A stretch of 64,000 bases of DNA from Candidatus Thorarchaeota archaeon (GCA_048882485.1 JBHLRP010000002.1:70527-134526), one strand, 5' to 3'; positions 24,365 to 62,188 are shown, counted from the stretch's first letter. Made by a program: numbers and translations. Notes: generated by a model from the letters alone, not told the origin.

Positions 24365-24365
24365 C

Positions 24366-25469: not shown

Positions 25470-25535
25470 TTGTCGTTCCCACCTCGGACAGACAATCATT
25501 GCATAAAAGAATGACCGTTATGTATTCCTTGCGCC

Positions 25536-25922
25536 CTATTCTAAATGCTCAATGCACTGGATGTTTCCATTTTCATCCAGGATCCAGCAATTCTCGCATA
25601 CAGAAATCCCACAGATTGCGCATATTCCGATATGATGATTCAGTCCTTCGAACTTGCGGACTCTACCATTCACTGAATGGATATCGCAGTACATGCTACC
25701 GCAACGATTGCATGACAGAATAGCATCATTTCTACAGAGCACACATGAAGATTTTCCCTGGGCTTGAATGAGTTTGCCCTCTCGTGCATAGCCGGGGCAG
25801 GCTTTAACTTCACAGAATCCTATTCCTTTGTAGCTGCCGCAATGGGTGCAGTAAGGGTCAAGGACTGATTTGTTTCTCTTCATTGCCTTTTGGTGCTCCA
25901 GTTCTTGAGAAGGCGCTCTCAC
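25536..25922 (-). CDS. Cys/His-rich multi-zinc-finger protein
   Basis: CTHC..C..C, CVLC..CNRC..YCDIH, CAIC..VCENC..CIEH. Confidence 0.7.
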   Translation of the reverse strand: MRAPSQELEHQKAMKRNKSVLDPYCTHCGSYKGIGFCEVKACPGYAREGKLIQAQGKSSCVLCRNDAILSCNRCGSMYCDIHSVNGRVRKFEGLNHHIGICAICGISVCENCWILDENGNIQCIEHLE

Positions 25923-39181: not shown

Positions 39182-39398
39182 GGCCACTTCTAGTAAAACC
39201 ATCCGCGAATTTCTTTGTAGTAAACTCATCAGCATAATTCGAATTGTCGAAAAAGCGACAAGGGCGATTGTCTGAAGAACCAGATTGGCACGCCATTGTT
39301 TATTATGTACGATTGTAATCCTCCAACCTGCACAACACCACCAGCTGCACGCTAGTGACCATGTTGGAGTCATGAGAGAGGATTGGCAAAGGAGGTCT

Positions 39399-45300: not shown

Positions 45301-48300
45301 CTGTAATTGTGACCCCATCCGATGCTAGCCATGGTAGAGCTCAAGTCACGATTCAATTCTTCTATGCAGAGGTCCAGACTTCTCTTACATCACCGACACA
45401 TCCTCAGGTGACCACTCCATTTGCCACTGATGTTCAGTTGACTCTAAACTATACTGACATTGAGAGTGGACTTGGGATTCCAGGCGCAACTATTACAAAC
45501 ACGAGTATCAACATTTATGGGCTTGTCGACCAGGGAGCTGGGATCTACACGCTATGGCTTGATGTTACCGGATTTGCAGAAGGCAGTCATGCCTTCACCC
45601 TGGGCGCAGACAAGGTTGGCTATGAATCCCGATCCCTTTCATTCACTGTTTTGATTCGAATTGCATACACCTATGCGATTCCTTCTGTCGGTGCTCTCGA
45701 CATACCCATTGGCAATTCGCCTATTTTCTACGTCGATTATTGGGATATTGACCATGATGCGCCGGTCGACAACTCCTCTGCACCATATACGCGAGTATTG
45801 TCTACTTGGCATAATTTCACAGTCGTCTACATCCCTGCTCAGGAACGGTATCAGATAACCTTCATGACCTCAGATTCAGATTCTCTTCAGACCAATATTG
45901 TCTACACTTTCAACTTCTCTAGAGGGTCGAATTATCAATTTGGCATCTTCAATATTACAGTTTCAATACGAACTCACAACACTGACTTCCGATTAGTAAG
46001 CGCTATTGAGCCTACAAGTAATGTGGGAATAATAAACATCTCAGTCTACTATGGAGATCTTGATAACAACTTCGGCGTTGATTCAGTCAATGTTGCATTC
46101 AGTGTGGAAAATGCCAGCGGTTCAGTGATTTCAAGCAGCCTATCATTAGGTGGAGGCTTCTACATAATTCAGATCGCAGCTAATCAGTTCGGTTTAGGCG
46201 TTCAGACATTCACCGTCTACGCGGATTGGATGGGTCCATTTGCAAAATACCAGAACAAGGACTTTACAACAACTGCAAGTGTAGTCGGACTCGAATCAGC
46301 TCTAACACTCCTGCAGGCATCTGCACCAACACCCTATCTTGATAACATGAGCTTCTTATTCTTCTATAGTGAGCTAAGCGGCGTCGGCATCGATAATCTG
46401 ACAAGCAATGTGTTTATTCATGTCAGTTTCCAAGGTGAATCTGTTGACCTCGATCAAGTAAGCATCTATGACTATTCCATAACGCAGCCTGGCAACTACT
46501 CCATTCAGCTTAACACTTCAATCTTTGATAGAACAGGTATCATCTACATGAATGTCTTTGTGAATTGGACAAAAGGAGTTGCGCCATTCTATCAAAACCG
46601 AACTGATGTGGTCACGCTGAGAATTCTGCCCCGAGACACATTGGTATCTGTGTCGCCTCCTTCACCCACAAGCTATCTTGAGAATGCCTCCTTTACATTT
46701 ACTTTCGAGGATATTGCTGGAGAACCCAGTACTCTGATATTTGACTCCCCTTCACTTACAATCTCATCGAATGTGACCTTCTCCTATACAGAAACAGGAG
46801 GAACATACACATTCGAGTTCAACACGACAGAGTTCGGATCCCTTGGCAAGAAGGCTGTATTGCTGCATGTGAATTGGGCTGGCACTCCATTCTATAAGAA
46901 CAGAACGAATATCATTGTATACATCACTATTATTGGACGGTTGACATTCCTCGAGTATCTTGCACCTGCTCCAACCCAGTATAATGACAATGTTCAGTTC
47001 AATGTTACATGGACTGACATCACGGGTGGTGCATCGGATGGCATTATAGGAGCGACACTTGCGCTGTATCAGGATGCGACTCCGATAAATCCCATTTACT
47101 ACAGCTGGTTGGATATTGGCGGAGGTATCTATTCTGTAGATCTAAGTGCTACCTATAATCCTCCAGGAGAATACAACCTAAGAGTCGAGATGTCAATAGG
47201 CTTATTCTATATTTCTGACGCAACAGTCAACCGTCAATTCACAATACGGCAGCGCATCACTCTACTATCTGCGGAACCTGTGAGAGATGTGCCTTATAGC
47301 TCAGATGTCGAGATCATCCTATATTACCAGGACCTGTTTACAATTAGCTCAATATCCAATGTCACTGGTGCTGTCACTTTTGAGATTCTGAATCCTGGTG
47401 GTTGGAATTTTGTGATTAGCTACAACTTCGTAAACCAATACTATGAACTAAGTGTTACTACATCCGACCATCCTGAGCTGCTCATTGGAGTGACATATAC
47501 ATTCAATCTTAGAATGATCTATGACTCCATCGCTCCATATTATGCCGGTGATGACCTTTCCGTAGACTATGAGCTACGTGTAAGGGACTCCACCATTGAG
47601 CTAGACGCAGCCCCGACTTCCACTGCCTATGATAATGACGCAAGCTTTGTAGTCTACTATGAAGACGCAGATGCATTAAGTGGCATAGCAGGTGCAGATA
47701 TTTCGGTATATCTCAATGGTACTCAGCTAATTGAGAATACTGACTATACAATGAGTGAAGGGGCTGCAGGACTTTATCTATTCGATGTGGATACAGGCTC
47801 ATTGGTAGGCCTTGGCCTTAATACTCTGGTAGTTTATGCGAATTGGCTGGGCACTCCCTATCATGAAAATCTGACAATCAGTGTTGGTATAGTTGTACGT
47901 GAACGATCTACAATAATTGAGTTTACTCAACCACCAGCTAGAACTGAATACCTTGATGATGTGGCTTTCAAATTTGTATACAAGGACCTAGACACAGGTG
48001 CTGCTGGTGGGAATCCTGTTCTTGGTCTGACAAAGACCGAAGTCAGACTCTACTACAAGAATGGCACAGAGATACCCTCTCCATATTTCTCATTGGCTCC
48101 TGATGGCAATGCGTATGAGATAGTCGTTAATTCGGCACTTCTTAGTGCGGTGCTTGATAATGCCTACTCTCTGAGGGTGGATGTCGATTGGAATATCGGA
48201 ATTGCCCCGTATTATGAGGATGATTCCACAACTCTTAGAGTCACAATAGTAGGCCGATCGATGTCTGTTGATCCCGCAACGATAGAAACCACTCCTCAAA

Positions 48301-51300
48301 CAGGCCCGCTTGGTACGGAGAACATGACTATTTTCTTCACAGTTTCTGATGCTAGTAATGGCAACCCCATTGAAGGAGCAACTATCATCCTTACATGCCA
48401 GGAGCAAGGAATCTTCACATCTTGGCTGATTCGAGGCACAGGTCCCGAAGCGGGTGAGTATACAATTGAAGTTGACACTCTCACGTTGACTACTGGAATC
48501 GGGCACGGCACGTTTCACTTTGAACTAGAAGTTCAGTGGAATCCATCAGATATTCCGTATTATCAAAATAGGTCTGCCATCGTATTGACTGGCGTTGTCG
48601 ACCTTGTATTAACGAATCTACAGGCTGATGCTCCTTCGCCTGCGGCGCCGTACATTGGCCAAAATGTTTCTCTGATTGTCACTTTCACTGACATAGACCA
48701 TAGTGTGGGAATTGATGGCGCTGGATTTACAATTGAATACGCTGTGGGTCCCGTTTTTGTGGAAACTCCTGGTTACAGTCTTACTGGAACTTCTGGTGAG
48801 TATAACATCACTTTTGGCACAGGAAATATTCCGCAACAGGATTCTTATGTTCTGAGGATTACTTTTTCCAAACCGGGGTACTCTCCACAAGTGGTATTGC
48901 CTACAATTACAGTTCAGAATAAACCTACAAGGATTGATGTGCATCAGGTTTCGTATGTGGTGAATTGGACTGAAACAGTTACAATTTACGTCAATTTCAC
49001 TGATACATTCAATGATGAACTCATTCCTCTTGCAAGTGTCACTTGGAGCTATCGTGACTATCAAGATCAAAGCTTCGCAATAGCAGGCAATGGAATATAC
49101 TCTGCAGATATTACTGCAGACCTATATGATTCAGGCACATGGGTGTTATCAATCAAGGCTGAAAAGGAACAATTTCAGCTTGCAACTGCGACTATTACTC
49201 TTGTTGTTCTGCCTCTCCCAAGTGAGATGGAAATCGTAAAGCCAGCGCAGGCTATTTATGATGTACCTCGTGGTGATCTGGTGAATATCACAGTCTTTCT
49301 GAATGATACAACCAACGTTCTGCCAATAGCAAGAGAGGAAGTAGTACGAGTCTATATCCTATTCCAAGGCATCCAATATCCAATGCAGGAAGACACCAGC
49401 TTTGGGAGTGGAGGCTATTGGTGGGGATACGTTCCCGGCTCTGTTACAGGAAACCTCGATCCCCGTGCATATGATGTCCGAGTAACGGCTGAATTTGTGA
49501 ACTACGAGCTTGCAGTCGGCCAATTTGGAATCTACATTCAACAGACAAGAACTGAGATTCGAATATGGGACGAAAAGACATCTCAATTCTCGAATGAAAC
49601 GGTGACATTTGAAGCCGTGTTCCTTGAAGAAGTGAATTTCACTCTGCAAATCATCGCACCTGCTCCTGCGTTCACCAATGCGAGCAATACATGGGAGATA
49701 AACAGCTCCTTGGTTTACTGGTTTGAATCTAGGTGGGTACTCAACTACACTTTCACCTTCAAGGGAAATGGTATCTTCGAGTTGCTGTTCAACACGTCGG
49801 AAGCATCTTACGGAACATGGGGTCTGACATTCACCTCAATTCCAACAAACACATTCTTTGCTGAAGACGCTCTTCTTGTCACCTTGGTTATCGCAAAAAT
49901 CCCTACGGATGTCACGCCGCCCATTGTGGGCGATTTCTATTGGGGCTGGAACGGAACCTTAAGTTTCGATTATTGGGACACCCATTATGACAAAGGGGTC
50001 ATTAATGCCACGGTGAAATATTCATACTACAACTTCAAGGATTTACCTGGCTATGACTGTCGAAACGGAACTTACCTAGTCTATATTGATACCGCATTCC
50101 TTTTCCCAAGCCCCACAATAGGGTATCCTATTATTGTCACATTCGAATACGAAGAAGGCGACTATGAGAGTCGAACTTCAGGCGTAATAATTAAGGTTCT
50201 CGAGGTGCCTACCGAAATACTTCTGAACACCACAGGAGCCCTCGGTGGTTTTACTCAGCTAGATGGAGAAATCAAGGTCTTCGAATATGATGTTGCTTTT
50301 GGCGGAATCATTGATTTTGAGTTTCTATACAATGATACAGATGATTCTGAAGGATATGTTGGAGGAATATCAGGCTCAGTGACGAATCGCACTAATCTAT
50401 ATCACACTATTAACATGAACAGTGATTCGCCGCTATTGGCAGAGGTTGGCAACGGTATGTATAGATTCCAGTTTAGTACCATGAATAGTCGGCTGTTTGA
50501 CAAGATAGGCGGGATCCCAGGAGCCAGTCCAGACATTCCTTATATTTTTGAAGTGACACTATGGCTCGCTAATCGGTCTGCTGGTACGGTTCGAATCCTA
50601 ATTACAGTCATCGAAGTTCCAACTGAAATCAGCCTTGTCGATTCTCATCTATTAATTGGCTATGGGCTGGAAGGCTATGTAACAGTGCTATATTGGGATG
50701 ATTGGAATAATCAGCCTATTACAGGAGCTAACATAACTGCAGATACTAATAATCGCTTTGTAATTGTAACAGATGCCTACGAAAACTCTACCCCAGGCTA
50801 CTATACGGTTCGTTTTATGGGCTATGCAGAAATCCTAGATATCTTTCGGGACGAACAAGATGCCTCTATTATTTTCAGTTTAACTAAGGAAAATTATCTG
50901 GCCAAAAGTCAGATTGATCTTGATGTTGTAATCCAAGCCCAGGTACTCCTTACGCCCATGGAAATAGTGATTCGAGATTATGGCCCTCTCCTTATACCAT
51001 TGAGTCTAGTCATGGTGCTTCTACTAGCTGGCTACGTAAGGGTGTGGAGCGTACCAAAGAGAATACGCCAGATAAATAGCCAAATCAAAGCAATTCGTAA
51101 GGGCAAAATGCCCAAGCCAATTTCTGACGTTATGAGCAGAAAGCAGCTTCTATCTGGTCTCTTCAACGATACCTATGCCCAGATGAAAATAACGCGAACA
51201 CCTGAGCAAATGCCTGAGGAGTCAATAGAAATAGCTGTGCCAGAAATGGGCGAATTGCTCATCCAGCTGGCAATACTCACCAATCTCAGTGCTGACGAAC

Positions 51301-51764
51301 TGGAGGAGTTCCAAGCTGACATCTCTAAAATGCGACTCAGTGAACAGGCCGCCTTTGTCAGAGAAGTCATCATGCAAGAGGCAGTTCGCGCCGCTCGACG
51401 AGATGGCAAAACACCCGAAGAAATAATTGAGCAGGTAAGAGTGGAAGCTCTCCGCAGGGTTAGTGGCGAAGAAGGTGTTATCGATGTGGGTCTGGCTGTC
51501 AAAGAAATGGAGGAAGAGTCCGTGCGAATAGTGGCTGAAGAGAAGCCTAAGAAGGAGGTCGAACCTGATGTTGCTCCCTCAGAAGAGGAACCCTCCGCTC
51601 CCGGCGAAAAACTCAGTCAATATGAACTAGAGGAACTTCGAAAGGAGCTGGAATCTCGAGGCGTTCCTCCACATGAAATCGACACGATCATGGAGCAGGC
51701 TCGAGTGCTTCCGCGCGAATTGGTCGAGGAGCTCGTGAAGAGCCTTGGCGACAGGAAGAAGTAG
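39399..51764 (+). CDS. Giant cell-surface glycoprotein (~4120 aa): signal peptide, 2x DUF2341+LamG, many Ig-like repeats, C-terminal TM and cytoplasmic domain
   Basis: MPLRKGSFLAIFLVLLFVAPA signal; YKKGITVD..FPLLIDI and YRKVITID..FPFLLDI; FDG.IDEIR LamG motifs; many NxS/T sequons; TM LLIPLSLVMVLLLAGYV. Confidence 0.85.
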   Translation: MPLRKGSFLAIFLVLLFVAPANNGHSPFVNPASTHSPYESDGDTPFGFLAGDSMSGSGDPLSTYVSGILENSSETQIDSSTSVTGSLSVPSGYSGTSLDVGIDSLSMTVTDNLRNPSFTTWHDERWHVGNSINFYDDNIDVPDSWTLVKSVNYDDAHPLHGDWELNDYSGGYGGSRAWRFEATIGGSDSLTPDDAIYLSQFLHAPWRDLYEIRISFYYYVLSTSNMLDQVHLFFKLGDLAEEKFHVFQPGDTTDAWLQETVTYTSADLSSVTVPDSLLFNIGLATDVSGTLGTYQAAFVYVDEVKIEMDVRPYPEQIGLNANNTAVVGSIAGNISTFVPDNDGRDCWDYSNLGIDLDGYNNDGRPEWGLWGTFWNTSEPYELGLQFPLDIPKGAVIENAYVEIQSAGGSGVVHGRVHLSSEMAAGGAIESFADHEQNYEHLEDTYSWLAASYDWQLTAWGNGVRYATPDISPLLQNVVSSSDWSSGQYIAVMVSYMWSSYYQYYNNIRGSLYDTNDADDNARLYVSYRVPLAEDVVLVDREEARRTLKYKKGITVDYTKVAADLTDFPLLIDIIDTDLHTDVFPGGDDIAFMVDGQFVEHEIEFFDQNHSPTEAHLVAWVKVPFLSSSTDTIITMLYGGSDARSLETKGVFADYEIVHHMNEAPNGTLVDSSGNLHYGYSIGGMTDTQSVAGAIGSSINFDGSDDAITVGQIDTDEWPSFTVTGWVSQDVVGDDRIFSKAPNTDGTQAIIHFAINGASAFRVRMNTDGTGGGASGSVDSTTLTVPGNWVYLAWSWSAATASMRLYVNGTFDRSVARDGDTVLDSILPFVIGNWQTGPYDNRFFDGKIDEIRMTQMVLSDGWIETEFNNQLDPSTFYSMGSEQSNAATPDVTYTSVQFTTGSSIPVNLGFTLALDFEGFGKSLDENFNEGTTFHAVNDSSTVTWIAKVLVAPLPNVAKMEVQISYPMTEWRPTSVTNPIGVSKSYLTDWTYTGGVLTLLPAAVDVYGVWILEFEGLNYLSDLQLGVFGGSLSSTAEFQTNHTMQFEGTSLWHAGSATQLYLTDPTGSAWSTPITHNTAGSDTHEIPSFQYRKVITIDNAKVYDDVANFPFLLDITDANVDDRAQADGDDILFVQNGVVIPHDLVEYTVAAGSAHVLAWVQGNLSNLVDTDITMYYGNSIVGPQEQPAAVWGEEYVGVYHLEESPTGATGEIIDSTTYGNDGTTEGSMNSADLVDAMFGKGLDFDEIDDMIRIKDDASLDTVATAGTIQLWIWWDNASDGQWQNIMDSSNRFNGNPNDGFEWAQQNDGDHFFYPWAGVGSDYNLGTNPFTNQQWHHLAVTLNYTSSPKSVKMYVDGSAIPIVIPNVPIFWTQIANPGDWQWGGDPDYPDRYFDGMFDEIRIANVERSAGWLFTEFVNQDNPTAFYNNIGLEQSRQTYNSTFVKALDDTAAAGIWTVTALFNDSGSAVDYSVGIYEREFIVKHDTSLILQEPSDAVGDRLTVTTAGEWIYVEYELTDDITAAGVPDATVTLNWTVSGAPTQIILDDFGTGTYGKMLNTNNLGTAQRWRVNLQSTHQFYNDATEYINVDLYHQTNLDYGDVTTTPADVDFTATLTFTDIYDGSPIVGAEITLDGSPVTHNDLGQGRYSVSIPTGALSLGQHWYIFNATLTGSYLEMASVNITFTLRQHFTSVNIQGDLVQPYGFDTQFDVIFLDLDTGGAVPLSAVSQFSFDPASYGIQTRPGTSYSITLTTNTWDVATESVTLTLTMADTKYAIPQAYLFDIAIRARFTSVSVSGSFVQPHGNMTPLSVYLWDHDAEEVVPIGFVDGLIFTWPGDSQAILSPSSYNVVLDTSTWDVGTTTVTLIANLPGAEYLNPSNFVFDITIRSMSTVLYHDPSDLVFAEGSDFWIDLRVNVSEAGASFGEPVTGLTQGEFSLRGNPYPFTIDTTDNLIGRYRLTISYANLGPGAFTITVIVTPSDASHGRAQVTIQFFYAEVQTSLTSPTHPQVTTPFATDVQLTLNYTDIESGLGIPGATITNTSINIYGLVDQGAGIYTLWLDVTGFAEGSHAFTLGADKVGYESRSLSFTVLIRIAYTYAIPSVGALDIPIGNSPIFYVDYWDIDHDAPVDNSSAPYTRVLSTWHNFTVVYIPAQERYQITFMTSDSDSLQTNIVYTFNFSRGSNYQFGIFNITVSIRTHNTDFRLVSAIEPTSNVGIINISVYYGDLDNNFGVDSVNVAFSVENASGSVISSSLSLGGGFYIIQIAANQFGLGVQTFTVYADWMGPFAKYQNKDFTTTASVVGLESALTLLQASAPTPYLDNMSFLFFYSELSGVGIDNLTSNVFIHVSFQGESVDLDQVSIYDYSITQPGNYSIQLNTSIFDRTGIIYMNVFVNWTKGVAPFYQNRTDVVTLRILPRDTLVSVSPPSPTSYLENASFTFTFEDIAGEPSTLIFDSPSLTISSNVTFSYTETGGTYTFEFNTTEFGSLGKKAVLLHVNWAGTPFYKNRTNIIVYITIIGRLTFLEYLAPAPTQYNDNVQFNVTWTDITGGASDGIIGATLALYQDATPINPIYYSWLDIGGGIYSVDLSATYNPPGEYNLRVEMSIGLFYISDATVNRQFTIRQRITLLSAEPVRDVPYSSDVEIILYYQDLFTISSISNVTGAVTFEILNPGGWNFVISYNFVNQYYELSVTTSDHPELLIGVTYTFNLRMIYDSIAPYYAGDDLSVDYELRVRDSTIELDAAPTSTAYDNDASFVVYYEDADALSGIAGADISVYLNGTQLIENTDYTMSEGAAGLYLFDVDTGSLVGLGLNTLVVYANWLGTPYHENLTISVGIVVRERSTIIEFTQPPARTEYLDDVAFKFVYKDLDTGAAGGNPVLGLTKTEVRLYYKNGTEIPSPYFSLAPDGNAYEIVVNSALLSAVLDNAYSLRVDVDWNIGIAPYYEDDSTTLRVTIVGRSMSVDPATIETTPQTGPLGTENMTIFFTVSDASNGNPIEGATIILTCQEQGIFTSWLIRGTGPEAGEYTIEVDTLTLTTGIGHGTFHFELEVQWNPSDIPYYQNRSAIVLTGVVDLVLTNLQADAPSPAAPYIGQNVSLIVTFTDIDHSVGIDGAGFTIEYAVGPVFVETPGYSLTGTSGEYNITFGTGNIPQQDSYVLRITFSKPGYSPQVVLPTITVQNKPTRIDVHQVSYVVNWTETVTIYVNFTDTFNDELIPLASVTWSYRDYQDQSFAIAGNGIYSADITADLYDSGTWVLSIKAEKEQFQLATATITLVVLPLPSEMEIVKPAQAIYDVPRGDLVNITVFLNDTTNVLPIAREEVVRVYILFQGIQYPMQEDTSFGSGGYWWGYVPGSVTGNLDPRAYDVRVTAEFVNYELAVGQFGIYIQQTRTEIRIWDEKTSQFSNETVTFEAVFLEEVNFTLQIIAPAPAFTNASNTWEINSSLVYWFESRWVLNYTFTFKGNGIFELLFNTSEASYGTWGLTFTSIPTNTFFAEDALLVTLVIAKIPTDVTPPIVGDFYWGWNGTLSFDYWDTHYDKGVINATVKYSYYNFKDLPGYDCRNGTYLVYIDTAFLFPSPTIGYPIIVTFEYEEGDYESRTSGVIIKVLEVPTEILLNTTGALGGFTQLDGEIKVFEYDVAFGGIIDFEFLYNDTDDSEGYVGGISGSVTNRTNLYHTINMNSDSPLLAEVGNGMYRFQFSTMNSRLFDKIGGIPGASPDIPYIFEVTLWLANRSAGTVRILITVIEVPTEISLVDSHLLIGYGLEGYVTVLYWDDWNNQPITGANITADTNNRFVIVTDAYENSTPGYYTVRFMGYAEILDIFRDEQDASIIFSLTKENYLAKSQIDLDVVIQAQVLLTPMEIVIRDYGPLLIPLSLVMVLLLAGYVRVWSVPKRIRQINSQIKAIRKGKMPKPISDVMSRKQLLSGLFNDTYAQMKITRTPEQMPEESIEIAVPEMGELLIQLAILTNLSADELEEFQADISKMRLSEQAAFVREVIMQEAVRAARRDGKTPEEIIEQVRVEALRRVSGEEGVIDVGLAVKEMEEESVRIVAEEKPKKEVEPDVAPSEEEPSAPGEKLSQYELEELRKELESRGVPPHEIDTIMEQARVLPRELVEELVKSLGDRKK

Positions 51765-51957
51765 CCCCTATGCTTCTTCCTTCCATCTTTCTTATCTTTC
51801 GAAAAATAGACAGCTCTGACTACAGGTTATTGAGAATCGACACACCATTTGTTATTATACATGTCTTGTCAGTCAGTACCCGCCACATGCTATTCCCTCG
51901 AATGTAATCCAAAAACTGGGAGTTCTGCAGGGAATGGACATACTGAGGTTGTCTGCA

Positions 51958-54900
51958 ATGAGGAAAGGTGCAATCATCAGTCTATCACTTGTAATCCTAT
52001 TCTTCCTACCATCTGTCATACCCATGGATGGTTCATCTGTGCCGGCTGCGGTGATACCAACTCCGTTTGATGGTCAAGGACTCTTAGCAGACAGCTCAGG
52101 GCCATATACAGGCAAGGGTGGAGCTCTGGATGTAACATATCAAGGCACATTCACAACAAACGCTTCTACCTGGAGTGCCAATGGACAAAGCTATGCGGCA
52201 GACTATAGTCTTGGGACATCCTTCTCAGTTCAGAATGCAAGTACAGTCACTTGGACTGCCTATGTTTCAGTTTCCCCGCCAGCAGAAGTGGAAGATGTCA
52301 GTTTCTCAGTGGACTATCCACGCTTAGAGTGGATTCCTACCGCAGTGACAGACCCACTTGGTGTGTCCAAGACTAATCCGGTAGATTGGACCTGCTCTCT
52401 GGGAGTACTAACAGTTTCGTCAACTGCTGTCGTGACCTACGGCTTATGGAAGATCGAGTTCCTAGGCGGCAACCATCTATATGATATGCAGTTCGATTTG
52501 GGAGGAGGAGTGGAGGCCACAACAGCCACTTACGACATAGGACAAGATATGGAGATTAAGGGCGTTTCATCCTTCATCAACGGTGGGACTTCCCAGCTTG
52601 TTTTGACTGACCCAACAGGAACGGTCTGGCAAACGATGACAGACACAACCTCAGGATTCAGCAGCCATGTCATACCCTCGTTCCAATACAAGAAGGACAT
52701 TACAATCAATCAAGCTGCGGTGGGTGCAGACTTAGATTACTTCCCAGTGATGGTTAGCCTAATCGATACGGGCTTGCATAATCATGCTCAGTCCAGTGGC
52801 AATGACATCGTGTTCGTTCAGAACGGGCTAGTTCTCGACCATGAAATAGAGATTTACAATCCAACCTATTCTCCTACCGAAGCCCAACTTATTGCGTGGG
52901 TAAAAGCGAATGTTTCGGGCAGTGTTGACACTGTCATTTCCATGTATTATGGCAACCCAATAGTGGGGCCGCTAGAGAATCCAACAGCGGTCTGGACTCA
53001 GAACTACGGTGCAGTGTATCATCTTGGAGAGAGTGCCACTGATGAAGGTACAAGCGCAGTTCATTATGACTCAACAAGCAATTCGTATTATGGAAATCAG
53101 ACTGGGAATGCGGGTGCTCCAGGATTGGTAAGCGGCAGCCAAGATTTCGATGGAATAGATGACAAGGTGGTAGTGGACTCATCTCTTGGCTTTGATCCCA
53201 CTGGCGACCTGACGATTTCGGGATGGTTCAATCTCGATAGCACATTCACTTCTAGTTCAGGAACATCGCAGGTGCTTATGGCCAAGTACTTGACAAATGA
53301 TGACGACATGCACATTGCACTTGCAGGAACTGATTATAGTCAAGCTACAATGACGAAAGGCTCATTGGTCTTTAAGATGGAGAACAATAATGCCCAGAAA
53401 TACAAATGTACACAGAGAATCACCTGGGGTAGCTCAAATTGGTTCTACTTCGCTGCTACAGTAGACGCGGATACACCAAACAACAACCAGATCTACATCA
53501 ACGGACTTCTAGACACAAACGCAACGAGTGTTGCAGGAGGCGCGTCATATGGCAATCTGACCTTCTCAGCAGACTGGGAGATTGGAGGAGGATTCACTGA
53601 TGGACAGATTCCGGGTGGGCAAGGTTTCTTCGATGGCGTAATGGATGAGGTTCGCATCTCGACAACACTTCGTTCAGGGGCATGGCTTCTGGCTGAGTAC
53701 TATAATCTGGCCTTGCCCGGGTCGTTCTATTCAATAGGTAGCGAAAGTGAGCGTTCAGTTGTTGCTCCCAAATTCACAAAAGCAATAGATGCGACAGCAA
53801 TAGCTGGTCTTTGGACAGCATACGTTCATTACAATGACAGCGGTGCTTCCGTGGACCACCGAGTTGGAGAATACCAGAGAGAGTTCATAGTTCAGCATAA
53901 CTCGACTCTTACTATTGATTCGCCCACCGGAATTGCCACAAAGGTTGTGGGAGATCTCCTATACATAGCTGTGAATCTGACAGACGATATCACGGCTGGT
54001 TTCGTCAGTGGCGCAACCGTGACTGCAAACTGGACAGATACGGGAACGCCAATAATAGTATCCTTAGAAGACTATGGGGATGGTAGATACGGCAAGGTTC
54101 TGAACACTTCTGATCTCCAGGATAACAGGCGCTGGCGAATCGACATTCAGTCTTCCCATCCTTATTACAATGATGCGTCCGCTTTCTTCAATCTTGACCT
54201 TATTCATGATACGACTCTAGCTTATGATTCTCTGACAACAACTCCAGTGGGATGGAGGCTCGAAGTGAGTCTGCTCTATAAGGACACGTTTGATGGGTCA
54301 CCAATCTCCGGAGCTACAATCAAGTTCTCAAATGGCACCTTAGCTAATGTTGTCTGGGCTGGTGGAGGGCGATATAATCTTTCCCTATCCTCATTCGGAC
54401 TTAGCAAAGGAAACCACATGTTCTCTTTCGTTGCTGAACCACCAAGCTCCTACCTTGCTGACGGAACTGTGGATGTGACTTTCACAATTCGAGCACACCA
54501 AACCGCAGTTTCAGTTTCTGGAGATTTATTGGTGCCATTCGGTGAGGATACCCCTCTAACAATACAATTGATAGACTTGGATAATCAGACCATAGTGCCT
54601 ATTGGGAGCGTTTCCGATTTCACATTCACAACCTCAAGCTATGGAGTCCAGACTGATAACTCACCTGCGGATTATCTCTTCACGCTCGTATCAAACGGCT
54701 GGTCAATAACACCTTCAGAGTCTGTCACGCTATCGGTGACATTATCGGACTCGAATTATATCGTTCCTGATGACCACGTTTTCAGCATTGAGATTCGAGC
54801 GCATTACACATCTGTTAGCGTGTCTGGAGACCTTGGCAAACCCTTGGGCAACAACACGCCAATAACCGTAGTCTTAACCGACTTGGATACTGGTTCTCAG

Positions 54901-57900
54901 ATAGCCATTGGGAACGTTGCCTCCTTTTCATTTGCCTCCAGCTACGGAACTCAGGATGAGAATTCGCTTTCTTCATTCGACGTCACATTGTCAACTTCTG
55001 GCTGGGCCGTCGGCAGCACAACGGTCACGCTAACTGTGGCTATGTCAAGTTCGAATTACTTTGCGCCTGCTGCTTATGATTTTGATGTAGTGATCGAGAG
55101 CCTTACTATCTACATGTATCATGAACCGAGTAATCTGAGGTTTTCAACTGGCCAGGACTTCCTCGTGTTCTTGAGAGTAAATGTCAGTGAACCAGGACCA
55201 AGCTACGGAAGTCCGGTCCAAAGTCTTATTCAAGGCGAGTTCTTAGTACCAGGATATTCCATCTCCATCGACACAACTGACCAATCGATTGGCAGATATG
55301 GTCTCACAATCTCAGCTGCGAGTTTCAGTGACGGCTATCACACCATCACGGTCTATCTTGATCCCTCCAGTGCTAACTATGCCAGCACGACTCTGGTGAT
55401 CACATTTAGATATGAACCAGGTCTGGCTGCTTTGTCATCACCAAGCTATCCTCAAATCACAACACCCTTCGGAACAGATGTCCAGATTTCACTCACCTAT
55501 GAGGACGCTGATAGCGGTACGCCTATCACCGGAGCTACAATCGGTGGTGATATTGCCACTTATACTCAGAATTACACTGCAGGTGTATATACAATTTGGA
55601 TTGATGTAGCAGGATATACTGAGGGTTCACATCAGTTCACATTGTGGGCTGATGAAGCGAATTACCAGAATAAGACCCTCACCTTCACATTGGTCATTCG
55701 AAACGCCTTCACCTATGCATTGCCTAGTGTAGGTGCCCTTGACATTCCTTTAGGTAATGATCCTATCTTCACAGTAGACTATCACGACATAGACAATGAC
55801 GTTCCAGTATCGAACGTATCAAGTGATGTTACAGTCGTTTCTAGCTGGGGTAGCTTCGATGTTGTTTACCTTTCTGGACCGGGGCTGTATGAAATCACAT
55901 TCAACACAGTTGACACGGACACTCTGGTTCAGAACCTAGTTGTCACTTTCACCTTCTCAAGACCAAACTATCAGGATGGAGCCTTCACAATTTCAGTTAC
56001 TATTCGTCCTCACAACACTGATTTCAGACTCGTAAGCGCAGTTGATCCGACAACTTTCAATGGAATCATCAATATTTCATTGTACTATGGCGACATCGAC
56101 AATGCCATTGGAATTGAGCCGCTTGGGAGTCTAACGATTACTGCAGTGAATGATTCAGGTCCTGTTTTGTTCAGCACTATCGATGAAGGGGGAGGGTTCT
56201 ACACAGTACAAATTGCTGCAAACCAATTCGATCAGGGACTCCATACCTTTAACATCACTTTCAGCTGGTCTGGCCCAATTCAGAAATATCAGACAAAATG
56301 GCTTGAAGTCACTGCAAATGTGATTGGTGAGGATTCCCGCCTTACAATCATGGCCGCCTCAGAGCCAACTGCCTATCTCGGCATGATGAGCTACATATTC
56401 TTCTACAGCGACCAAGGAGGAGTTGGCATTACGAACGACACATTCAATGTTCATATCTCGGTGTCCTTCCAAGGAATTTCTGTAGATCTAGGACAGGTGA
56501 GTATTCAGGAGATAAATAGCATATCTCAACCCGGCAACTACTCGATTGACTTCAATACCACCATCTTCCCTGGGACTGGGCTATATTACATGAATGTCTA
56601 CATTAATTGGACTGAGGGTGTAGCTCCATTCTACACCAACCGTTTCGATGTAATTTCTGTACGAGTACTACCTCGTGACACACTGGTGTCTGTAACGCCT
56701 CCATCACCTACATACTATGGCGAAACCGCATGGTTCATTTTCACCTTTGATGATGTGACTGGAGGAAGCAATGTTCCCATTGCGGATGATCCCGCATTAG
56801 ATATAACAATAAGTCTTCTAGGCTACAGTGTCAACTACTTGTCTGGAACGAAACAGTTCAATGTGAGCTTTGACACGAGTCTGCTTGGTGCACCCTTGGG
56901 ATCAAGGCCTTTCACTTTGGATGTCACGTGGGCTGGTGCACCATTCTATACAAACCGTACAGGTCGCACAATCTCTATTGTTCTCTTGGCACGCCTAACG
57001 GTTCTAGATTATCAAGCTCCAGCACCTACACCGTACCAAGACAACGTCACATTCACTGTGACTTGGACAGATGTAACGAATGTCGCATCAGGGATATCTA
57101 TTGATACACTTGTGCTGTATGATGTTGCAACTCCAATTCCCTATCCTACATTTTACTCTTGGACTTCACTAGGAAATGGTCAGTATGAAATCACGGTCAA
57201 TACGACCTACTATACTGATCCAGGGTTCTATAATCTGATAGTTGAACTCACATCCGCTGACTTCTTCATCTCAGATGTGAGTGCATCTCGGGTGTTCAAC
57301 GTTAGGCAACGAGTGACACTTCTATCTGCAGAACCCACTGATAGGTTACCATACAACTCTACACTACAATTTGTCCTGAACTATCAAGATCTATTGACCC
57401 TAGGAGTCATCGGCAACGGCTCGGGTCTGGTAACCTTCGAGATTCTGAATTCATCTACCTGGTACTACTCAATATCCTGGAATGCGGTCCTCAAGCAATA
57501 CGACTTCACGGTGGAAACATACAATCATCCCACTCTGGCCATTGATACTCCTTACGCATTGGAAGTCAGAATGACCTATGCAAACGTGGCTCCATTCTAT
57601 GGTGCCGATACTGCATACATCCTGTTTGAGTTGAGATCCAGGTCCTCAAAGCTTGTACTTCAAGATACTCCTGAATCAACTCCATATTTGGACTATGCAA
57701 ACTTTACAATCTTCTATAGAGACCTTGATGCTGCAGGTTCAGTTGGAATTGTCGCTGATAGCATTGAAGTATACAAAGGCGCGATACCACTTACCCAAGG
57801 CACAGACTATTTGGTATCGAACCTCGGCTTGGGAGTCTACTTGCTATCTGTAAACACGACTGCTCTAGATGGTCTTGGCGCAACGGTGCTAGATGTCTTT

Positions 57901-60900
57901 GCCAATTGGAATCCTCTGAATAGGCCATATCATGATGATGCTGATATTGGCGTTTCAGTGGTGACAACCGAGCGAGATGCCGACGTACAGATTCTAGTTC
58001 CTCCATCACAGACCCAATATTGGGACAATGTGACACTGACCTTTGCATACTTTGATCTTGGCAGAGGTGTAGAAATCACCGGCATAACAGCCTCAAACAT
58101 TGAAGTGTGGGCGGAGGGTGCGCTTCTTGCTACAGGAGACTTCATACTGACTCCTATCGGACCCAACTTCCAGCTGGAAGTCAACTCCTCTGTCTTGAGC
58201 CCGACTTTGGTTAGCGGCTTTAATCTGACAATTTTCGTTGACTGGAATAATCTCGCTGCACCGTATTATCTCGATGATTCAACACTAGTCAGAGTCACTC
58301 TTGTTGGAAGGAGAATGACGTTTTCAGCTGACCCCATTGGCGATGCTGACCTTGGAGGCCTCTTGAACATCACATTCCGTCTTTTTGATCAAGATCAAGG
58401 ATGGCTTATAGCAGGTGCTATAATCTCCTTTGATGGTCAGACTGTTTCTCTGACGCTTGGAGTGAATTATTGGGTAAATGACGTGGGCGGAGTATATACC
58501 ATAAGTGTCGACACGCTAGCATTAGGCAGTCCCGGTCCTTACAAGTTTGATTTGGATATTGCGTGGAATCCTGGCACAGCCCCATTCTATAGCGCCCTCG
58601 CAGCAATTGAATTGACCGGTGTCGTTCGAGAGATAGACACCGATTTGACATTGCTTAGTCCCGCCACGGGGATTGTTGAAGTCTATTGGCAAGACCAGGC
58701 GTACGTTGATGTTTCCTTCGATGACCTGTTCAATCTAGTTACTATACCCGGAGCAATAGTAAGGTATGATTCAGGAATAGCAAATGGTTTCTTTGATGAA
58801 TCCATTGTCACTCCTGGGACTTACAATGCCTTTATTTCGACAGAAAATGCCACCACTGGAACTCATGTTGTATCTATAACTGCGAGCCTAGCCAATTATG
58901 AAACTGCCATAACATATGTTACCATTATCGTAAAGGCACTGCCGTCAGAGATGATTCCAATTTCCCCAGTATCTGGACAGGATTTCATCAGTAGAGGGAG
59001 CGCCATAGAAATAACCATCTATCTGCGAGATGACTACATTACACTCGCACCTATAGTAGACTCCAGAGTGCTATCCGTATTGGCGAATTTTGAAGGAGTT
59101 GACTATCCAGTTGTCTACAACGGCACAGTAGGATATTACGAGCTTCTCATACCCGCAGATGGCCCAACCATTCTTGACATTGGGACTTACAATGTCCGGG
59201 TCACTGCGACCTTCAACTTCTATGACCCTGCAACGTATCTGTTCAGAGTTACACTGACTCAATCAGCTACCGAGCTTAGGTTCACAGGAACCACAGCAGA
59301 GGATATGTCACGTGTTTACACTCAAAGTGTCAATTTCTCAGTCATGCTGGTTCTACCTGATTTTGGAGATGCCCTATTCTATAATTCTACTATCACGTGG
59401 TCCGTTGTTGGTACTAGTTTGTCTGGAACATTAGCAAATCCACGAACAGGCTATTATTCAAAGATTGTCGATACCACCACTATTGGATACGGTATCTGGC
59501 CTATATCCATTAGAGCAAGAACATGGGCCAATGCATCAGAGTTTGCGGACACATCCATACAACTCACACTGACAATAACGAGGATCCCAACGACTGTGAT
59601 TCGTCCTGGGAATCTTGATGTCTATTGGGGATGGAGTGGAAATATAGAGTTTATCTACTCCGCGGGTTCGTTCGGCAATGTAACAGGTGCTAATGCACCA
59701 TTCACATGGGACGTAGTGAGTGGGAATGCAACTGGAGGGCCAAATGGTCGGTATTTTGTATTCGTTAACACTTCACTTGTTACCCCAGGATTCTATACCC
59801 TGAGTCTCACACTCAGCAAGGAGAACTACCAAGAGGGACCCGCATCAATATTGATTAGAGTCCTAGAAGTGCCCACATCAATCTTCGTAGACTCGGTCGT
59901 CTATACTCCAGCATATGCAGGAGAATTACTCTCCATGACTGATCTACAGATTCCTCTTGGCGAGTCAATGGTCATCGATTTATGGTATAATGACACTGAT
60001 GACTCCGAAGGGTATCTTGGAGGACTACCCGGAGCATTTGCTACAGCTAACAGCTTCCTTAGAGGCCCGACAATAGACACACCACTGAATGTTTCATTGG
60101 TTGATTTGGGGCTTGGACTGTATCGAATAACATTTGACACAACAGACCCGGATATCGCAGCTATTGTCACAGACGAGCCATACAGGTTCTACATCGAAAT
60201 GGACCTGGAGAATCGTAGAATTGCTGAGATACTGATTAGAATCGTCGTCATCGATATTCCAACTGAGCTGACTGTCATTGATGATGTACCTGACGAGATA
60301 ATCAATGGTGATACGATCGTCTTTGAGATATTTCTCAATGATACTTGGCATAATGTGGGGCTTGCAGGACAAGATATTGTGCTAACAAGTGAAGGCGGCC
60401 TGCAAGGTGCAGTAGGATTGAATTGGGAGGATATGGGCAATGGGTACTACCGTATCACTCTGAGTACTGGCGGATTTATGAATGCGGGCGCTGGCTTTGT
60501 CACAATTAATGTCGAAATTCCGGGTTATGCTCCTATGACTACAAATGTTTTGCTATCGATTTTGCCGAGTGAAACCGACAGAATGTTTCAATCGGTACTC
60601 CTCTATGGCCTCCCACTAAGTTTAATGCTATTCATTTTGCTTGGCGCTTACATTAGGGTATGGAGTGTGCCGAAGAAACTTAGGCAAATCAACGGCCAGA
60701 TCAAGAAGCTCCGGAAGGGGAAAGTGCCTGAACCAATAGCGGATGTGAAAAGCCGTCGAGAATTGATTGCAGATCTCTTCAATAACACCTTTGGCGAATT
60801 GCAACTCACACGAGTAGCATCTCAGATGCCAGAGGAGTCAGTTCCTATCGAGATACCAGAAATGGGTGACCTTCTCATTCAACTTGCTATACTGACAAAT

Positions 60901-61365
60901 CTTGATGCTGATGAGCTCGATGAGTTCAAGGCTGACATCTCAAAGATGAAAATCAGTGAGCAAGCGGCATTTGTGCGAGAGGTCATTGAACAGGAAGCAG
61001 TTAGAGCTGCTCGGCGTGAAGGAAAAACAGTTGAAGAGATTCTTGAGCAAATTGCTGATCAAGCTGCTCGCCAACTTGAAGGAGTCGAGGAAGAAATCCC
61101 TGCACCGCAGATCTTGGATGTGGAGCCAGAAGTGGCTGAAGAAGTGGCGGAGCCAATTGTCAGTAAGCCGGAGGAAGCCGAAGAGATGATTGAAGTCATT
61201 ATGGATGATCGACTCAGCTTATTTGAGATTGAGGACATTAAGTTGGAGCTTGTCCGTCGTGGTGTTCCTGCTCACGAAATCGATATTATCATTAAACAGG
61301 TCAAGGACCTGCCACGAGAATTGGTGGACGAGTTGATTGAGAGCGTAGATCGAAACGACAAGTAG
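51958..61365 (+). CDS. Giant cell-surface glycoprotein paralog (~3135 aa): signal peptide, DUF2341+LamG, Ig-like repeats, TM, cytoplasmic domain
   Basis: MRKGAIISLSLVILFFLPSVIP signal; YKKDITIN..FPVMVSL; FFDGVMDEVRIS; colinear with the upstream paralog; TM GLPLSLMLFILLGAYI. Confidence 0.85.
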   Translation: MRKGAIISLSLVILFFLPSVIPMDGSSVPAAVIPTPFDGQGLLADSSGPYTGKGGALDVTYQGTFTTNASTWSANGQSYAADYSLGTSFSVQNASTVTWTAYVSVSPPAEVEDVSFSVDYPRLEWIPTAVTDPLGVSKTNPVDWTCSLGVLTVSSTAVVTYGLWKIEFLGGNHLYDMQFDLGGGVEATTATYDIGQDMEIKGVSSFINGGTSQLVLTDPTGTVWQTMTDTTSGFSSHVIPSFQYKKDITINQAAVGADLDYFPVMVSLIDTGLHNHAQSSGNDIVFVQNGLVLDHEIEIYNPTYSPTEAQLIAWVKANVSGSVDTVISMYYGNPIVGPLENPTAVWTQNYGAVYHLGESATDEGTSAVHYDSTSNSYYGNQTGNAGAPGLVSGSQDFDGIDDKVVVDSSLGFDPTGDLTISGWFNLDSTFTSSSGTSQVLMAKYLTNDDDMHIALAGTDYSQATMTKGSLVFKMENNNAQKYKCTQRITWGSSNWFYFAATVDADTPNNNQIYINGLLDTNATSVAGGASYGNLTFSADWEIGGGFTDGQIPGGQGFFDGVMDEVRISTTLRSGAWLLAEYYNLALPGSFYSIGSESERSVVAPKFTKAIDATAIAGLWTAYVHYNDSGASVDHRVGEYQREFIVQHNSTLTIDSPTGIATKVVGDLLYIAVNLTDDITAGFVSGATVTANWTDTGTPIIVSLEDYGDGRYGKVLNTSDLQDNRRWRIDIQSSHPYYNDASAFFNLDLIHDTTLAYDSLTTTPVGWRLEVSLLYKDTFDGSPISGATIKFSNGTLANVVWAGGGRYNLSLSSFGLSKGNHMFSFVAEPPSSYLADGTVDVTFTIRAHQTAVSVSGDLLVPFGEDTPLTIQLIDLDNQTIVPIGSVSDFTFTTSSYGVQTDNSPADYLFTLVSNGWSITPSESVTLSVTLSDSNYIVPDDHVFSIEIRAHYTSVSVSGDLGKPLGNNTPITVVLTDLDTGSQIAIGNVASFSFASSYGTQDENSLSSFDVTLSTSGWAVGSTTVTLTVAMSSSNYFAPAAYDFDVVIESLTIYMYHEPSNLRFSTGQDFLVFLRVNVSEPGPSYGSPVQSLIQGEFLVPGYSISIDTTDQSIGRYGLTISAASFSDGYHTITVYLDPSSANYASTTLVITFRYEPGLAALSSPSYPQITTPFGTDVQISLTYEDADSGTPITGATIGGDIATYTQNYTAGVYTIWIDVAGYTEGSHQFTLWADEANYQNKTLTFTLVIRNAFTYALPSVGALDIPLGNDPIFTVDYHDIDNDVPVSNVSSDVTVVSSWGSFDVVYLSGPGLYEITFNTVDTDTLVQNLVVTFTFSRPNYQDGAFTISVTIRPHNTDFRLVSAVDPTTFNGIINISLYYGDIDNAIGIEPLGSLTITAVNDSGPVLFSTIDEGGGFYTVQIAANQFDQGLHTFNITFSWSGPIQKYQTKWLEVTANVIGEDSRLTIMAASEPTAYLGMMSYIFFYSDQGGVGITNDTFNVHISVSFQGISVDLGQVSIQEINSISQPGNYSIDFNTTIFPGTGLYYMNVYINWTEGVAPFYTNRFDVISVRVLPRDTLVSVTPPSPTYYGETAWFIFTFDDVTGGSNVPIADDPALDITISLLGYSVNYLSGTKQFNVSFDTSLLGAPLGSRPFTLDVTWAGAPFYTNRTGRTISIVLLARLTVLDYQAPAPTPYQDNVTFTVTWTDVTNVASGISIDTLVLYDVATPIPYPTFYSWTSLGNGQYEITVNTTYYTDPGFYNLIVELTSADFFISDVSASRVFNVRQRVTLLSAEPTDRLPYNSTLQFVLNYQDLLTLGVIGNGSGLVTFEILNSSTWYYSISWNAVLKQYDFTVETYNHPTLAIDTPYALEVRMTYANVAPFYGADTAYILFELRSRSSKLVLQDTPESTPYLDYANFTIFYRDLDAAGSVGIVADSIEVYKGAIPLTQGTDYLVSNLGLGVYLLSVNTTALDGLGATVLDVFANWNPLNRPYHDDADIGVSVVTTERDADVQILVPPSQTQYWDNVTLTFAYFDLGRGVEITGITASNIEVWAEGALLATGDFILTPIGPNFQLEVNSSVLSPTLVSGFNLTIFVDWNNLAAPYYLDDSTLVRVTLVGRRMTFSADPIGDADLGGLLNITFRLFDQDQGWLIAGAIISFDGQTVSLTLGVNYWVNDVGGVYTISVDTLALGSPGPYKFDLDIAWNPGTAPFYSALAAIELTGVVREIDTDLTLLSPATGIVEVYWQDQAYVDVSFDDLFNLVTIPGAIVRYDSGIANGFFDESIVTPGTYNAFISTENATTGTHVVSITASLANYETAITYVTIIVKALPSEMIPISPVSGQDFISRGSAIEITIYLRDDYITLAPIVDSRVLSVLANFEGVDYPVVYNGTVGYYELLIPADGPTILDIGTYNVRVTATFNFYDPATYLFRVTLTQSATELRFTGTTAEDMSRVYTQSVNFSVMLVLPDFGDALFYNSTITWSVVGTSLSGTLANPRTGYYSKIVDTTTIGYGIWPISIRARTWANASEFADTSIQLTLTITRIPTTVIRPGNLDVYWGWSGNIEFIYSAGSFGNVTGANAPFTWDVVSGNATGGPNGRYFVFVNTSLVTPGFYTLSLTLSKENYQEGPASILIRVLEVPTSIFVDSVVYTPAYAGELLSMTDLQIPLGESMVIDLWYNDTDDSEGYLGGLPGAFATANSFLRGPTIDTPLNVSLVDLGLGLYRITFDTTDPDIAAIVTDEPYRFYIEMDLENRRIAEILIRIVVIDIPTELTVIDDVPDEIINGDTIVFEIFLNDTWHNVGLAGQDIVLTSEGGLQGAVGLNWEDMGNGYYRITLSTGGFMNAGAGFVTINVEIPGYAPMTTNVLLSILPSETDRMFQSVLLYGLPLSLMLFILLGAYIRVWSVPKKLRQINGQIKKLRKGKVPEPIADVKSRRELIADLFNNTFGELQLTRVASQMPEESVPIEIPEMGDLLIQLAILTNLDADELDEFKADISKMKISEQAAFVREVIEQEAVRAARREGKTVEEILEQIADQAARQLEGVEEEIPAPQILDVEPEVAEEVAEPIVSKPEEAEEMIEVIMDDRLSLFEIEDIKLELVRRGVPAHEIDIIIKQVKDLPRELVDELIESVDRNDK

Positions 61366-61369
61366 ACTA

Positions 61370-62188
61370 TCAATCCACTTTCCCGTTTTCCTCTGTGTTG
61401 AGGAAATGAGAGAGTGGGAGAGTGGTGCCAGATGCAACCGGCTTTGTCCTAGAGGCTCGTCTGACTGGATACTGTGGATGCTTTGACAAGGTGTACTTGA
61501 TATACATCTTGGACTCCTCTACATGCACATGCACCTGCGCGCAGCTGGCTAGCGCCTTGCCTCCTGCAGGAGTCCTAGCGCTTCTTGGTGATGATGGTGC
61601 TGAGATTACTGTGGCTATTCCCCTCTGTAGGGTGAATGTCATTAGATTGGTCGCCATGTGTGTGAGTTGTTGGAGTCCCTCCCCTGTTAGCCCTTCTGAG
61701 ATGTACAGGTCCGGAAGTCCAGTCACGATGAGAAGTCTCGCACGGACTCTATCGAAGAAAGACTTGAGCTGGTCCATCACAAGGTCGTACGTCTGAGACG
61801 CATTGAATGCTCGAGAGATATAGATTCTGTCCATTGCATCCTCTGGCTCAAGTCCGAGGTCGAACGCGTGGTCACTGATTCTCTCAATCTTAATCATATT
61901 GGCACTATCGATAATTATCGTTGGGCTGTCTGCACCGCCTCTGTCATTAGGGAGTTGAGCCTGAACTGCAAAACGGAGTAGGTCATCATGAAGACTACGT
62001 GAGCCGTAGAATAGGTGTGTGAGGCCCATCTCAATACCACCCCCGAGTAAGTTATCGATTGAAACGTAGCCACTGCTCATTCTTCGTCTCTCCACCTTGT
62101 CCGCAGTGAAAAACCCTGGTCTTATCTTGGATTCCGCGCCCTTCATCTCACACTCGTCCTCCGCTCGAGCGTTTTTATCCACCCCCAA
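61370..62188 (-). CDS. RadA/RecA-fold paralog with degenerate Walker A
   Basis: SSGYVSIDNLLGGGIEMG, IIIDSAN, RIYISRAFN; P-loop position reads FYGSRSLHDD (no GKT); exact start uncertain. Confidence 0.75.
   Translation of the reverse strand: MGVDKNARAEDECEMKGAESKIRPGFFTADKVERRRMSSGYVSIDNLLGGGIEMGLTHLFYGSRSLHDDLLRFAVQAQLPNDRGGADSPTIIIDSANMIKIERISDHAFDLGLEPEDAMDRIYISRAFNASQTYDLVMDQLKSFFDRVRARLLIVTGLPDLYISEGLTGEGLQQLTHMATNLMTFTLQRGIATVISAPSSPRSARTPAGGKALASCAQVHVHVEESKMYIKYTLSKHPQYPVRRASRTKPVASGTTLPLSHFLNTEENGKVD

Follow-up and report, generated by a model that had tools for sequence, protein, structure and literature searches.

Tandem giant surface proteins of Thorarchaeota with a conserved, predicted cytoplasmic tail whose juxtamembrane segment is linked by gene context to a putative adaptor

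This study analyzed a 64,000-nucleotide stretch of DNA from Candidatus Thorarchaeota archaeon (GCA_048882485.1, JBHLRP010000002.1:70527-134526; hereafter the window), located on contig 2 of a 157-contig, 3.96-Mb assembly, and in particular two giant genes in it, designated A and B, whose products share a conserved tail behind a single transmembrane (TM) helix. We propose, with a probability of approximately 0.6, that these giants are a conserved tandem pair of surface glycoproteins with a modular docking tail, the juxtamembrane (JM) segment of which most likely recruits a cytoplasmic adaptor of approximately 370 amino acids (aa). Asgard archaea, the nearest relatives of eukaryotes known, possess numerous small GTPases and adaptor-like proteins with partners still to be found, and in most archaeal surface proteins the chain ends only a few residues past the membrane anchor. 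The giants belong to a large and nearly universal Thorarchaeota family, the best-conserved part of which is predicted to lie inside the cell, and the tie between the JM segment and a specific adaptor family makes a surface-to-interior link testable. TM-anchored archaeal surface proteins with immunoglobulin (Ig)-like stalks, such as PySLP, and tandem giant genes in Thorarchaeota are already known; literature searches found no description of the conserved folded 240-residue tail or of the JM-adaptor association.

Genes A and B lie in tandem in the same orientation, with 170 nt between them, and comprise the following features:

39372-51764, plus strand: gene A, giant type I surface protein (open reading frame [ORF], hydropathy and charge)
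41202-43616, plus strand: lectin-like head region of A, with DUF2341 and Laminin_G_3 (Pfam)
50973-51032, plus strand: single C-terminal TM helix of A (hydropathy, charge)
51934-61365, plus strand: gene B, giant type I surface protein of 3143 aa with a signal-like N-terminus
60589-60648, plus strand: single C-terminal TM helix of B (hydropathy, charge)

The open frame of gene A spans 39285-51764 on the plus strand (4159 codons counted from TTG 39285); its likely start is ATG 39372 or 39399, immediately 5' of a signal-like hydrophobic stretch, which gives a product of approximately 4,130 aa. The two proteins are 43% identical across approximately 3060 aligned columns. The lectin-like ectodomains proposed in an earlier note on this DNA agree with the Pfam results: protein A exceeded the gathering cut-offs for DUF2341 (aa 640-685; 24.4 bits vs. 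23.4) and Laminin_G_3 (best stretch, aa 1284-1444; 104 bits vs. 27.6). Protein B itself had no match in the Pfam search; it aligns to A in the LamG/DUF2341 region, its orthologues are named LamG-like, and one at 93% identity carries PF13385. The stalk of B has a periodicity of about 100-106 aa, and scattered Ig-type Pfam hits occur in its relatives. The giants would thus be built of a signal peptide, a LamG/DUF2341 lectin-like head, a long stalk of beta-rich repeats of approximately 100 aa, one TM helix, and a cytoplasmic tail of 238-243 aa.

The tails of A and B have the same order of parts:

51033-51206, plus strand: tail A, basic JM segment, residues 1-58
51216-51470, plus strand: tail A, four-helix core of module 1, residues 62-146
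51471-51599, plus strand: tail A, acidic linker, poorly conserved
51600-51761, plus strand: tail A, terminal three-helix module (module 2)
60649-60822, plus strand: tail B, basic JM segment, residues 1-58, net charge of about +7 in residues 8-25
60832-61086, plus strand: tail B, four-helix core of module 1, predicted helices 72-83, 87-97, 102-124, and 128-144, predicted local distance difference test (pLDDT) score of about 90
61087-61203, plus strand: tail B, acidic linker, residues 147-185, predicted to be disordered (pLDDT <50)
61204-61362, plus strand: tail B, terminal three-helix module 2, residues 191-237, pLDDT of about 87

In paralogs the tail, which is 238-243 aa long in A and B, reaches approximately 410 aa. 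An AlphaFold2 model of the whole tail had a mean pLDDT of 79 (78-sequence alignment), and module 1 modelled alone had a pLDDT of 87 (57 sequences). In the JM segment, AlphaFold2 placed a juxtamembrane helix at residues 9-22 and a second helix at residues 36-51; the motif of this segment, approximately 55 residues long, reads hydrophobic-P-x-hydrophobic-hydrophobic-R ... KG-x-hydrophobic-P ... R. Invariant or near-invariant positions are P8, R12, G24, P27, R36, L75, L79, D96, M100, S103, E104, F108, E111, V112, Q115, and E116 in module 1 and L201, G205, and L221 in module 2. Module 2 occurs in 14 copies in the genome, all within giants, at 1 to 4 copies per giant; two paralogous giants carry four tandem copies each (contig 19: 20549-32530 and contig 76: 1527-11339), compared with one elsewhere, and the database relatives P0045, P0047, and P0052 show the same arrangement. 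One further, weak module 2 match, to the 694-aa coiled-coil protein C51, is regarded as spurious.

Neither single tail sequences nor profiles had a significant match in Pfam, NCBIfam, or the PDB sequences; the weak matches obtained were to PYRIN, Bap31_Bap29_C, RecX_HTH1, SAP, and MrdA. Foldseek searches of the PDB with the whole tail and with module 1 alone returned nothing at E <= 0.001, the best VIA-align scores of both queries against 48,161 chains (Z 5.7-5.9) were within noise, and an ESM Atlas search gave no usable match. All structural matches of both programs were generic helical bundles, death domains (DDs), and three-helix bundles resembling the XD of viral phosphoproteins. The scores of the module 1 core against death-fold domains (Z 5.4 for the FAS/FADD DD and 4.1-4.3 for other DDs) lie in the noise range of helical models, and the core has four helices, in contrast to the six-helix bundle of approximately 85 aa in DD, CARD, and PYD (PYRIN match, E 0.04-0.09). 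An internal duplication relating module 2 to the module 1 core was not established (hhalign probability 40% over 20 columns). Judged from these sequence and model comparisons, the tail appears to define at least two protein domains described in no database yet.

The case for an adaptor comes from the JM segment outside Thorarchaeota. The distribution of the tail was surveyed in 400 Asgard genomes. The full tail was present in 81 of the 85 genomes of the family of the window, in the only genome (1/1) of its sister family, and, in a weaker but full-length form, in 17 of the 19 genomes of a second Asgard family; in other families the matches were confined to the first 50 or so tail residues. The four-helix core was restricted to Thorarchaeota and one other family. 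An alignment of six families revealed the JM motif directly behind a single TM helix, with P8 invariant and R12 and P27 conserved in at least 90% of the sequences; the hidden Markov model (HMM) E-values were 1e-30 for A and 8e-30 for B.

The candidate partner and the gene that follows it are in the window:

24366-25499, minus strand: adaptor-like cytoplasmic protein of 377 aa, winged-helix-like at approximately residues 250-330
23513-24439, minus strand: Arf-like small GTPase, extended at the N-terminus by approximately 140 aa; next gene downstream of the one for the adaptor-like protein

The winged-helix signal in the 377-aa protein is weak. Its gene is on the strand opposite to gene A and approximately 14 kb upstream of it, with hydantoinase, GNAT, ThiI, and other genes between them; in at least 14 Thorarchaeota genomes of about 12 genera, an adaptor gene shares a contig with tail A at a distance of 19-34 kb. 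The genome carries two full copies of the adaptor (one in the window and one on contig 6) and one weak copy. Immediately 5' of the adaptor-like gene and in the same orientation is a Cys-rich ORF of 128 aa (25536-25922, minus strand), apparently with several zinc-ribbon-like CxxC pairs.

Homologues of the 377-aa protein were present in 277 of the 400 Asgard genomes and in every family with JM matches. With the whole-tail profile, no JM match was obtained in four of the larger families lacking the adaptor (0/12, 0/7, 0/5, and 0/5 genomes) or in three others nearly lacking it (1/31, 1/22, and 1/12 genomes). In two small-genome families an adaptor homologue lies within a few bases 3' of the JM-bearing surface gene, and in a large Asgard family (f22) the JM-only profile matched 58 of the 61 genomes. 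Examples of these arrangements are as follows:

G304, 242336-244939 and 244951-246063, same strand: JM surface gene, then adaptor
G300, 2-1822 and 1801-2913, same strand: JM surface gene, then adaptor
L135 (f22), 1-1701 and 1705-2817: JM surface protein and adaptor in the same frame

Among the best 30 JM loci of f22 (L130-L159, one per genome), 24 had a full-length adaptor gene directly downstream, on the same strand and within a few bases. The surface protein and the adaptor formed one uninterrupted ORF in two of those 24 loci, L140 (G170:C9) and L142 (G220:C61), and in G197:C163. Both ORFs shared a frame, with one stop (TAG, TGA, or TAA) between them, in 14 of the 24 loci, compared with approximately 8 of 24 expected by chance; this layout suggests that the two genes have split and fused repeatedly or that the stop codon is read through. 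A search of 5.8 billion proteins for fused adaptors 661-2000 aa long returned none, and the fusions were found directly in genomes. The JM motif is essentially the sole conserved cytoplasmic sequence of the JM surface proteins in these lineages and is therefore likely the contact for the adaptor.

On the basis of these findings, the tail may be regarded as a docking platform of separable parts. The JM segment, common to surface proteins of several Asgard families, would recruit the adaptor, as adjacency and fusion suggest, and the neighbouring Arf-like GTPase would possibly be engaged through it. A flexible acidic linker would present one to four copies of module 2, which probably binds an additional partner or neighbouring tails. 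This proposal draws on the observed architecture, topology signals, family, purifying selection, predicted folds, and JM-adaptor adjacency and fusion; physical binding of the adaptor is what we infer from them, together with any role of the GTPase, ligand of the ectodomain, direction of signalling, and physiological role of the pair. The earlier note had expected a common intracellular partner from the cytoskeleton, the endosomal sorting complex required for transport (ESCRT), or a signalling system. Genomic context does point to one partner, the adaptor beside an Arf-like GTPase; nothing ties the tail to actin or ESCRT.

Several results weigh against adaptor recruitment by the giants. The adjacency was seen in short-tailed JM proteins of other families and not with the long helical tail of Thorarchaeota, and no adaptor gene stands beside any of the nine tail-bearing giants in the genome; the 14-kb spacing between the adaptor gene and gene A is conserved macro-synteny and not an operon. 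The JM-adaptor proteins of other families have the same motif directly behind the TM helix, but they are mostly 500-2,700 aa long, with tails that end 30-40 residues past the motif or continue into the adaptor, and their adaptor gene is adjacent. In Thorarchaeota, by contrast, the adaptor of the giants is unlinked or approximately 14 kb away, and the giants have the four-helix core and module 2 in addition. For these two parts no candidate partner emerged, the confinement of module 2 to giants fits contacts between tails as well as an additional partner, and the JM helix showed no significant amphipathicity.

The strongest alternative is that the tails have no soluble partner and bind each other, A to B or to neighbours in the coat, thereby organizing the surface layer from inside. 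Tandem co-oriented pairs occur three times in the genome, the A-B pair is conserved across Thorarchaeota, and module 2, found solely in giants, varies in number as expected of an avidity module. The layout also resembles that of colossal TM-anchored S-layer proteins such as PySLP of Pyrobaculum arsenaticum, which has homologues in Thermoproteota (bioRxiv 10.64898/2026.08.21.746120): both are very large and have a signal peptide, a long stalk, made of tandem Ig-like domains in PySLP and possibly also in the giants, and a single C-terminal TM helix followed by a basic stretch. In PySLP, however, a short basic tail ends the protein, whereas the giants continue for 238-243 residues with two modules predicted to be folded and helical; this comparison bears out the statement in the earlier note that short tails are typical of archaeal S-layer proteins and makes long folded tails unusual. 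Furthermore, PySLP is one lattice protein, whereas the genome analyzed here encodes nine paralogs with ectodomains of 1,600-6,300 aa, unlike a single lattice-forming S-layer protein, and in other lineages adjacency and fusion tie the JM segment to a soluble adaptor. We therefore consider an exclusively tail-to-tail function unlikely, at perhaps one chance in five.

Adaptor recruitment by the JM segment also permits a broader and more tentative reading, in which this segment is the receptor end of an Asgard-wide module consisting of a surface protein, a putative adaptor of longin/winged-helix type, and an Arf-like GTPase. We regard it as possible, though less probable than not. If true, cell-surface events would be coupled to a small-GTPase switch, the module would be a prokaryotic forerunner of eukaryotic receptor-adaptor-GTPase signalling or cargo sorting, and additional partners would be engaged by the helical modules specific to Thorarchaeota.

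The earlier note also anticipated a paralog family, and a paralog count revealed nine tail-bearing giants in this genome, with open frames of 1839-6555 aa, arranged as three tandem pairs (contigs 2, 19, and 1) and three singles. An HMMER search of 1.84 billion representative proteins recovered 119 tail clusters only, in proteins of up to 5543 aa and with the tail always C-terminal. Every named relative is annotated as "hypothetical," "LamG-like jellyroll," or "DUF2341," and almost all come from metagenome-assembled genomes (MAGs) labelled Thorarchaeota, with a few bearing other Asgard labels. For three relatives with up to 91% tail identity (P0123, P0212, and P0218), the source MAG is labelled Hermodarchaeota, Odinarchaeota, or Lokiarchaeota, which probably reflects inconsistent labelling or binning and not the true distribution. 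In the window, a 180-aa protein (18344-18886, plus strand) has a short N-terminus and one TM helix followed by a weak JM-profile match (E 2.6e-4 among 4790 ORFs, HMM positions 13-54), and is possibly a minimal relative of the tails that lacks an ectodomain.

In passages of Wu et al. (2022; PMC8813620), Otus and Ephialtes are described as twin giant genes of aloposons in Heimdallarchaeum, and tandem giant gene pairs are noted in Thorarchaeota MAGs; these passages make no mention of a conserved cytoplasmic tail. The pair analyzed here, two tandem genes of 3,100-4,100 aa, resembles the tandem paralogous genes of 3,000-6,000 aa in aloposons and could be the cargo of such a mobile element. Aloposons, however, integrate at a tRNA gene downstream of the giants, whereas a Rad51-like gene and GcvH follow gene B and no tRNA gene is present in the 64-kb window. 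Aloposons also have four upstream genes, including one for a MinD/ParA-like ATPase; here, DUF2334, ThiI, GNAT, and hydantoinase A/B genes lie 5' of A, with no such ATPase. The A-B pair and its downstream genes are syntenic across genera, in 47 of 68 loci for the Rad51-like gene and GcvH behind B, and the tail tree tracks species groups. Stable synteny, housekeeping genes upstream, and the lack of a tRNA gene indicate a stable chromosomal locus, and an aloposon origin is accordingly very unlikely. The Rad51/RadA-like paralog (61370-62188, minus strand; Pfam Rad51, E 5e-16) is convergent to gene B.

Each of the nine paralogs has an N-terminal signal-like stretch and one C-terminal TM helix by hydropathy and charge analysis, with a net charge of -1 to -3 across the 15 residues preceding the helix and +6 to +9 across the 30 that follow. 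NxS/T sequons number 1.3-2.8 per 100 aa in the nine ectodomains (1.4-2.6 times the composition expectation), compared with 5 in approximately 2200 residues of the nine tails, and each tail has 0-1 cysteines. The signal peptide, the sequon-rich ectodomain, and the single TM helix with a basic stretch behind it predict a cytoplasmic tail, in accordance with the positive-inside rule and the sequon depletion, and agree with the single-pass type I topology, tail inside, that the earlier note had assumed. An extracellular tail, or a C-terminal hydrophobic stretch that is not a membrane anchor, is highly improbable given the strength of the charge bias, the sequon depletion, the near absence of cysteines, and natural fusions that join the JM segment to a protein also found stand-alone without a signal peptide.

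The tails are the most similar part of A and B. The first tail residues past the TM helix are encoded at 51033 (A) and 60649 (B), and an ungapped comparison of the first 135 residues gave 95 identities, exactly the coordinates and the manual count reported earlier; the best of 2000 shuffles gave 22. The terminal modules share 26 of 53 residues, the linker between the two conserved modules is acidic and poorly conserved, as had been described, and the last two 100-column windows of the A-B alignment, covering the TM helix and tail, are 55% and 61% identical. Compared with distant orthologues, B shows identities of 32-47% in the ectodomain, 16-52% in the TM helix, 60-72% in module 1 (tail residues 1-145), 22-41% in the linker, and 46-65% in module 2. 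The four closest orthologues, which belong to the same genus, show similar conservation in ectodomain and tail, the ratio of nonsynonymous to synonymous rates (dN/dS) being approximately 0.1 in each. The greater divergence of the ectodomains stated in the earlier note thus holds between A and B and toward distant orthologues but not among close ones, and the dN/dS value indicates that the ectodomains are under ordinary purifying selection and are neither hypervariable nor diversifying.

At identical residues of A and B, codon identity was 0.38-0.44 in the tail windows and ranged from 0.24 to 0.55 along the whole genes; by the Nei-Gojobori method, dS between the tails was saturated (undefined) and dN was 0.24. 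In a tree of 78 tails, in which A-type tails were those with a giant as the next gene and B-type tails those with a Rad51-like next gene, A-type and B-type tails of the same contig fell into different clades, each common to many genomes (L029/L035, L030/L075, L038/L031, and L040/L080); tail A of the window grouped with L064 and tail B with L018. The separate clades indicate an old duplication whose copies have evolved without concerted evolution. Recent gene conversion between the tandem copies, which the earlier note had named as a refuting finding and which the adjacency of the paralogs and the peak of similarity in the tail might suggest, has practically no chance of being the cause, because synonymous sites are as saturated in the tail as elsewhere and the two clades span many genomes; the results point to purifying selection instead.

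The earlier note had further likened the giants to cadherins or integrins. The resemblance lies in layout alone: a large glycosylated ectodomain, one TM helix, a conserved basic JM segment, a tail likely to recruit cytoplasmic proteins, and paired genes. No integrin or cadherin domain was detected by Pfam in A or B at E <= 0.01 or in the tails at E <= 10, and the tail folds had no significant structural match.

No neighbour was common to the nine giant loci, apart from leucine-rich-repeat proteins encoded 5' of two giant pairs (contig 19: 281-796 and contig 1: 177656-178786). Convergent to the contig-76 giant is a gene (contig 76: 110-1411) for a 434-aa protein whose C-terminal part is a Ras-family GTPase domain. 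Different long cytoplasmic tails occur on three other large single-pass surface proteins (contig 1: 172671-177434, contig 12: 24404-30193, and contig 16: 2336-17848), two of which resemble longin/roadblock-like tails by eye, and several further giants of the genome have short basic tails only. Elsewhere in the window, a 767-aa protein (25990-28293, plus strand) has Ig-like and CarboxypepD_reg matches and, at its C-terminus, a weak EAP30/Vps22-like match below the cut-off (E 4.8e-4), and a 1275-aa protein (13218-17045, plus strand) has a CN_hydrolase domain and a weak MIT match.

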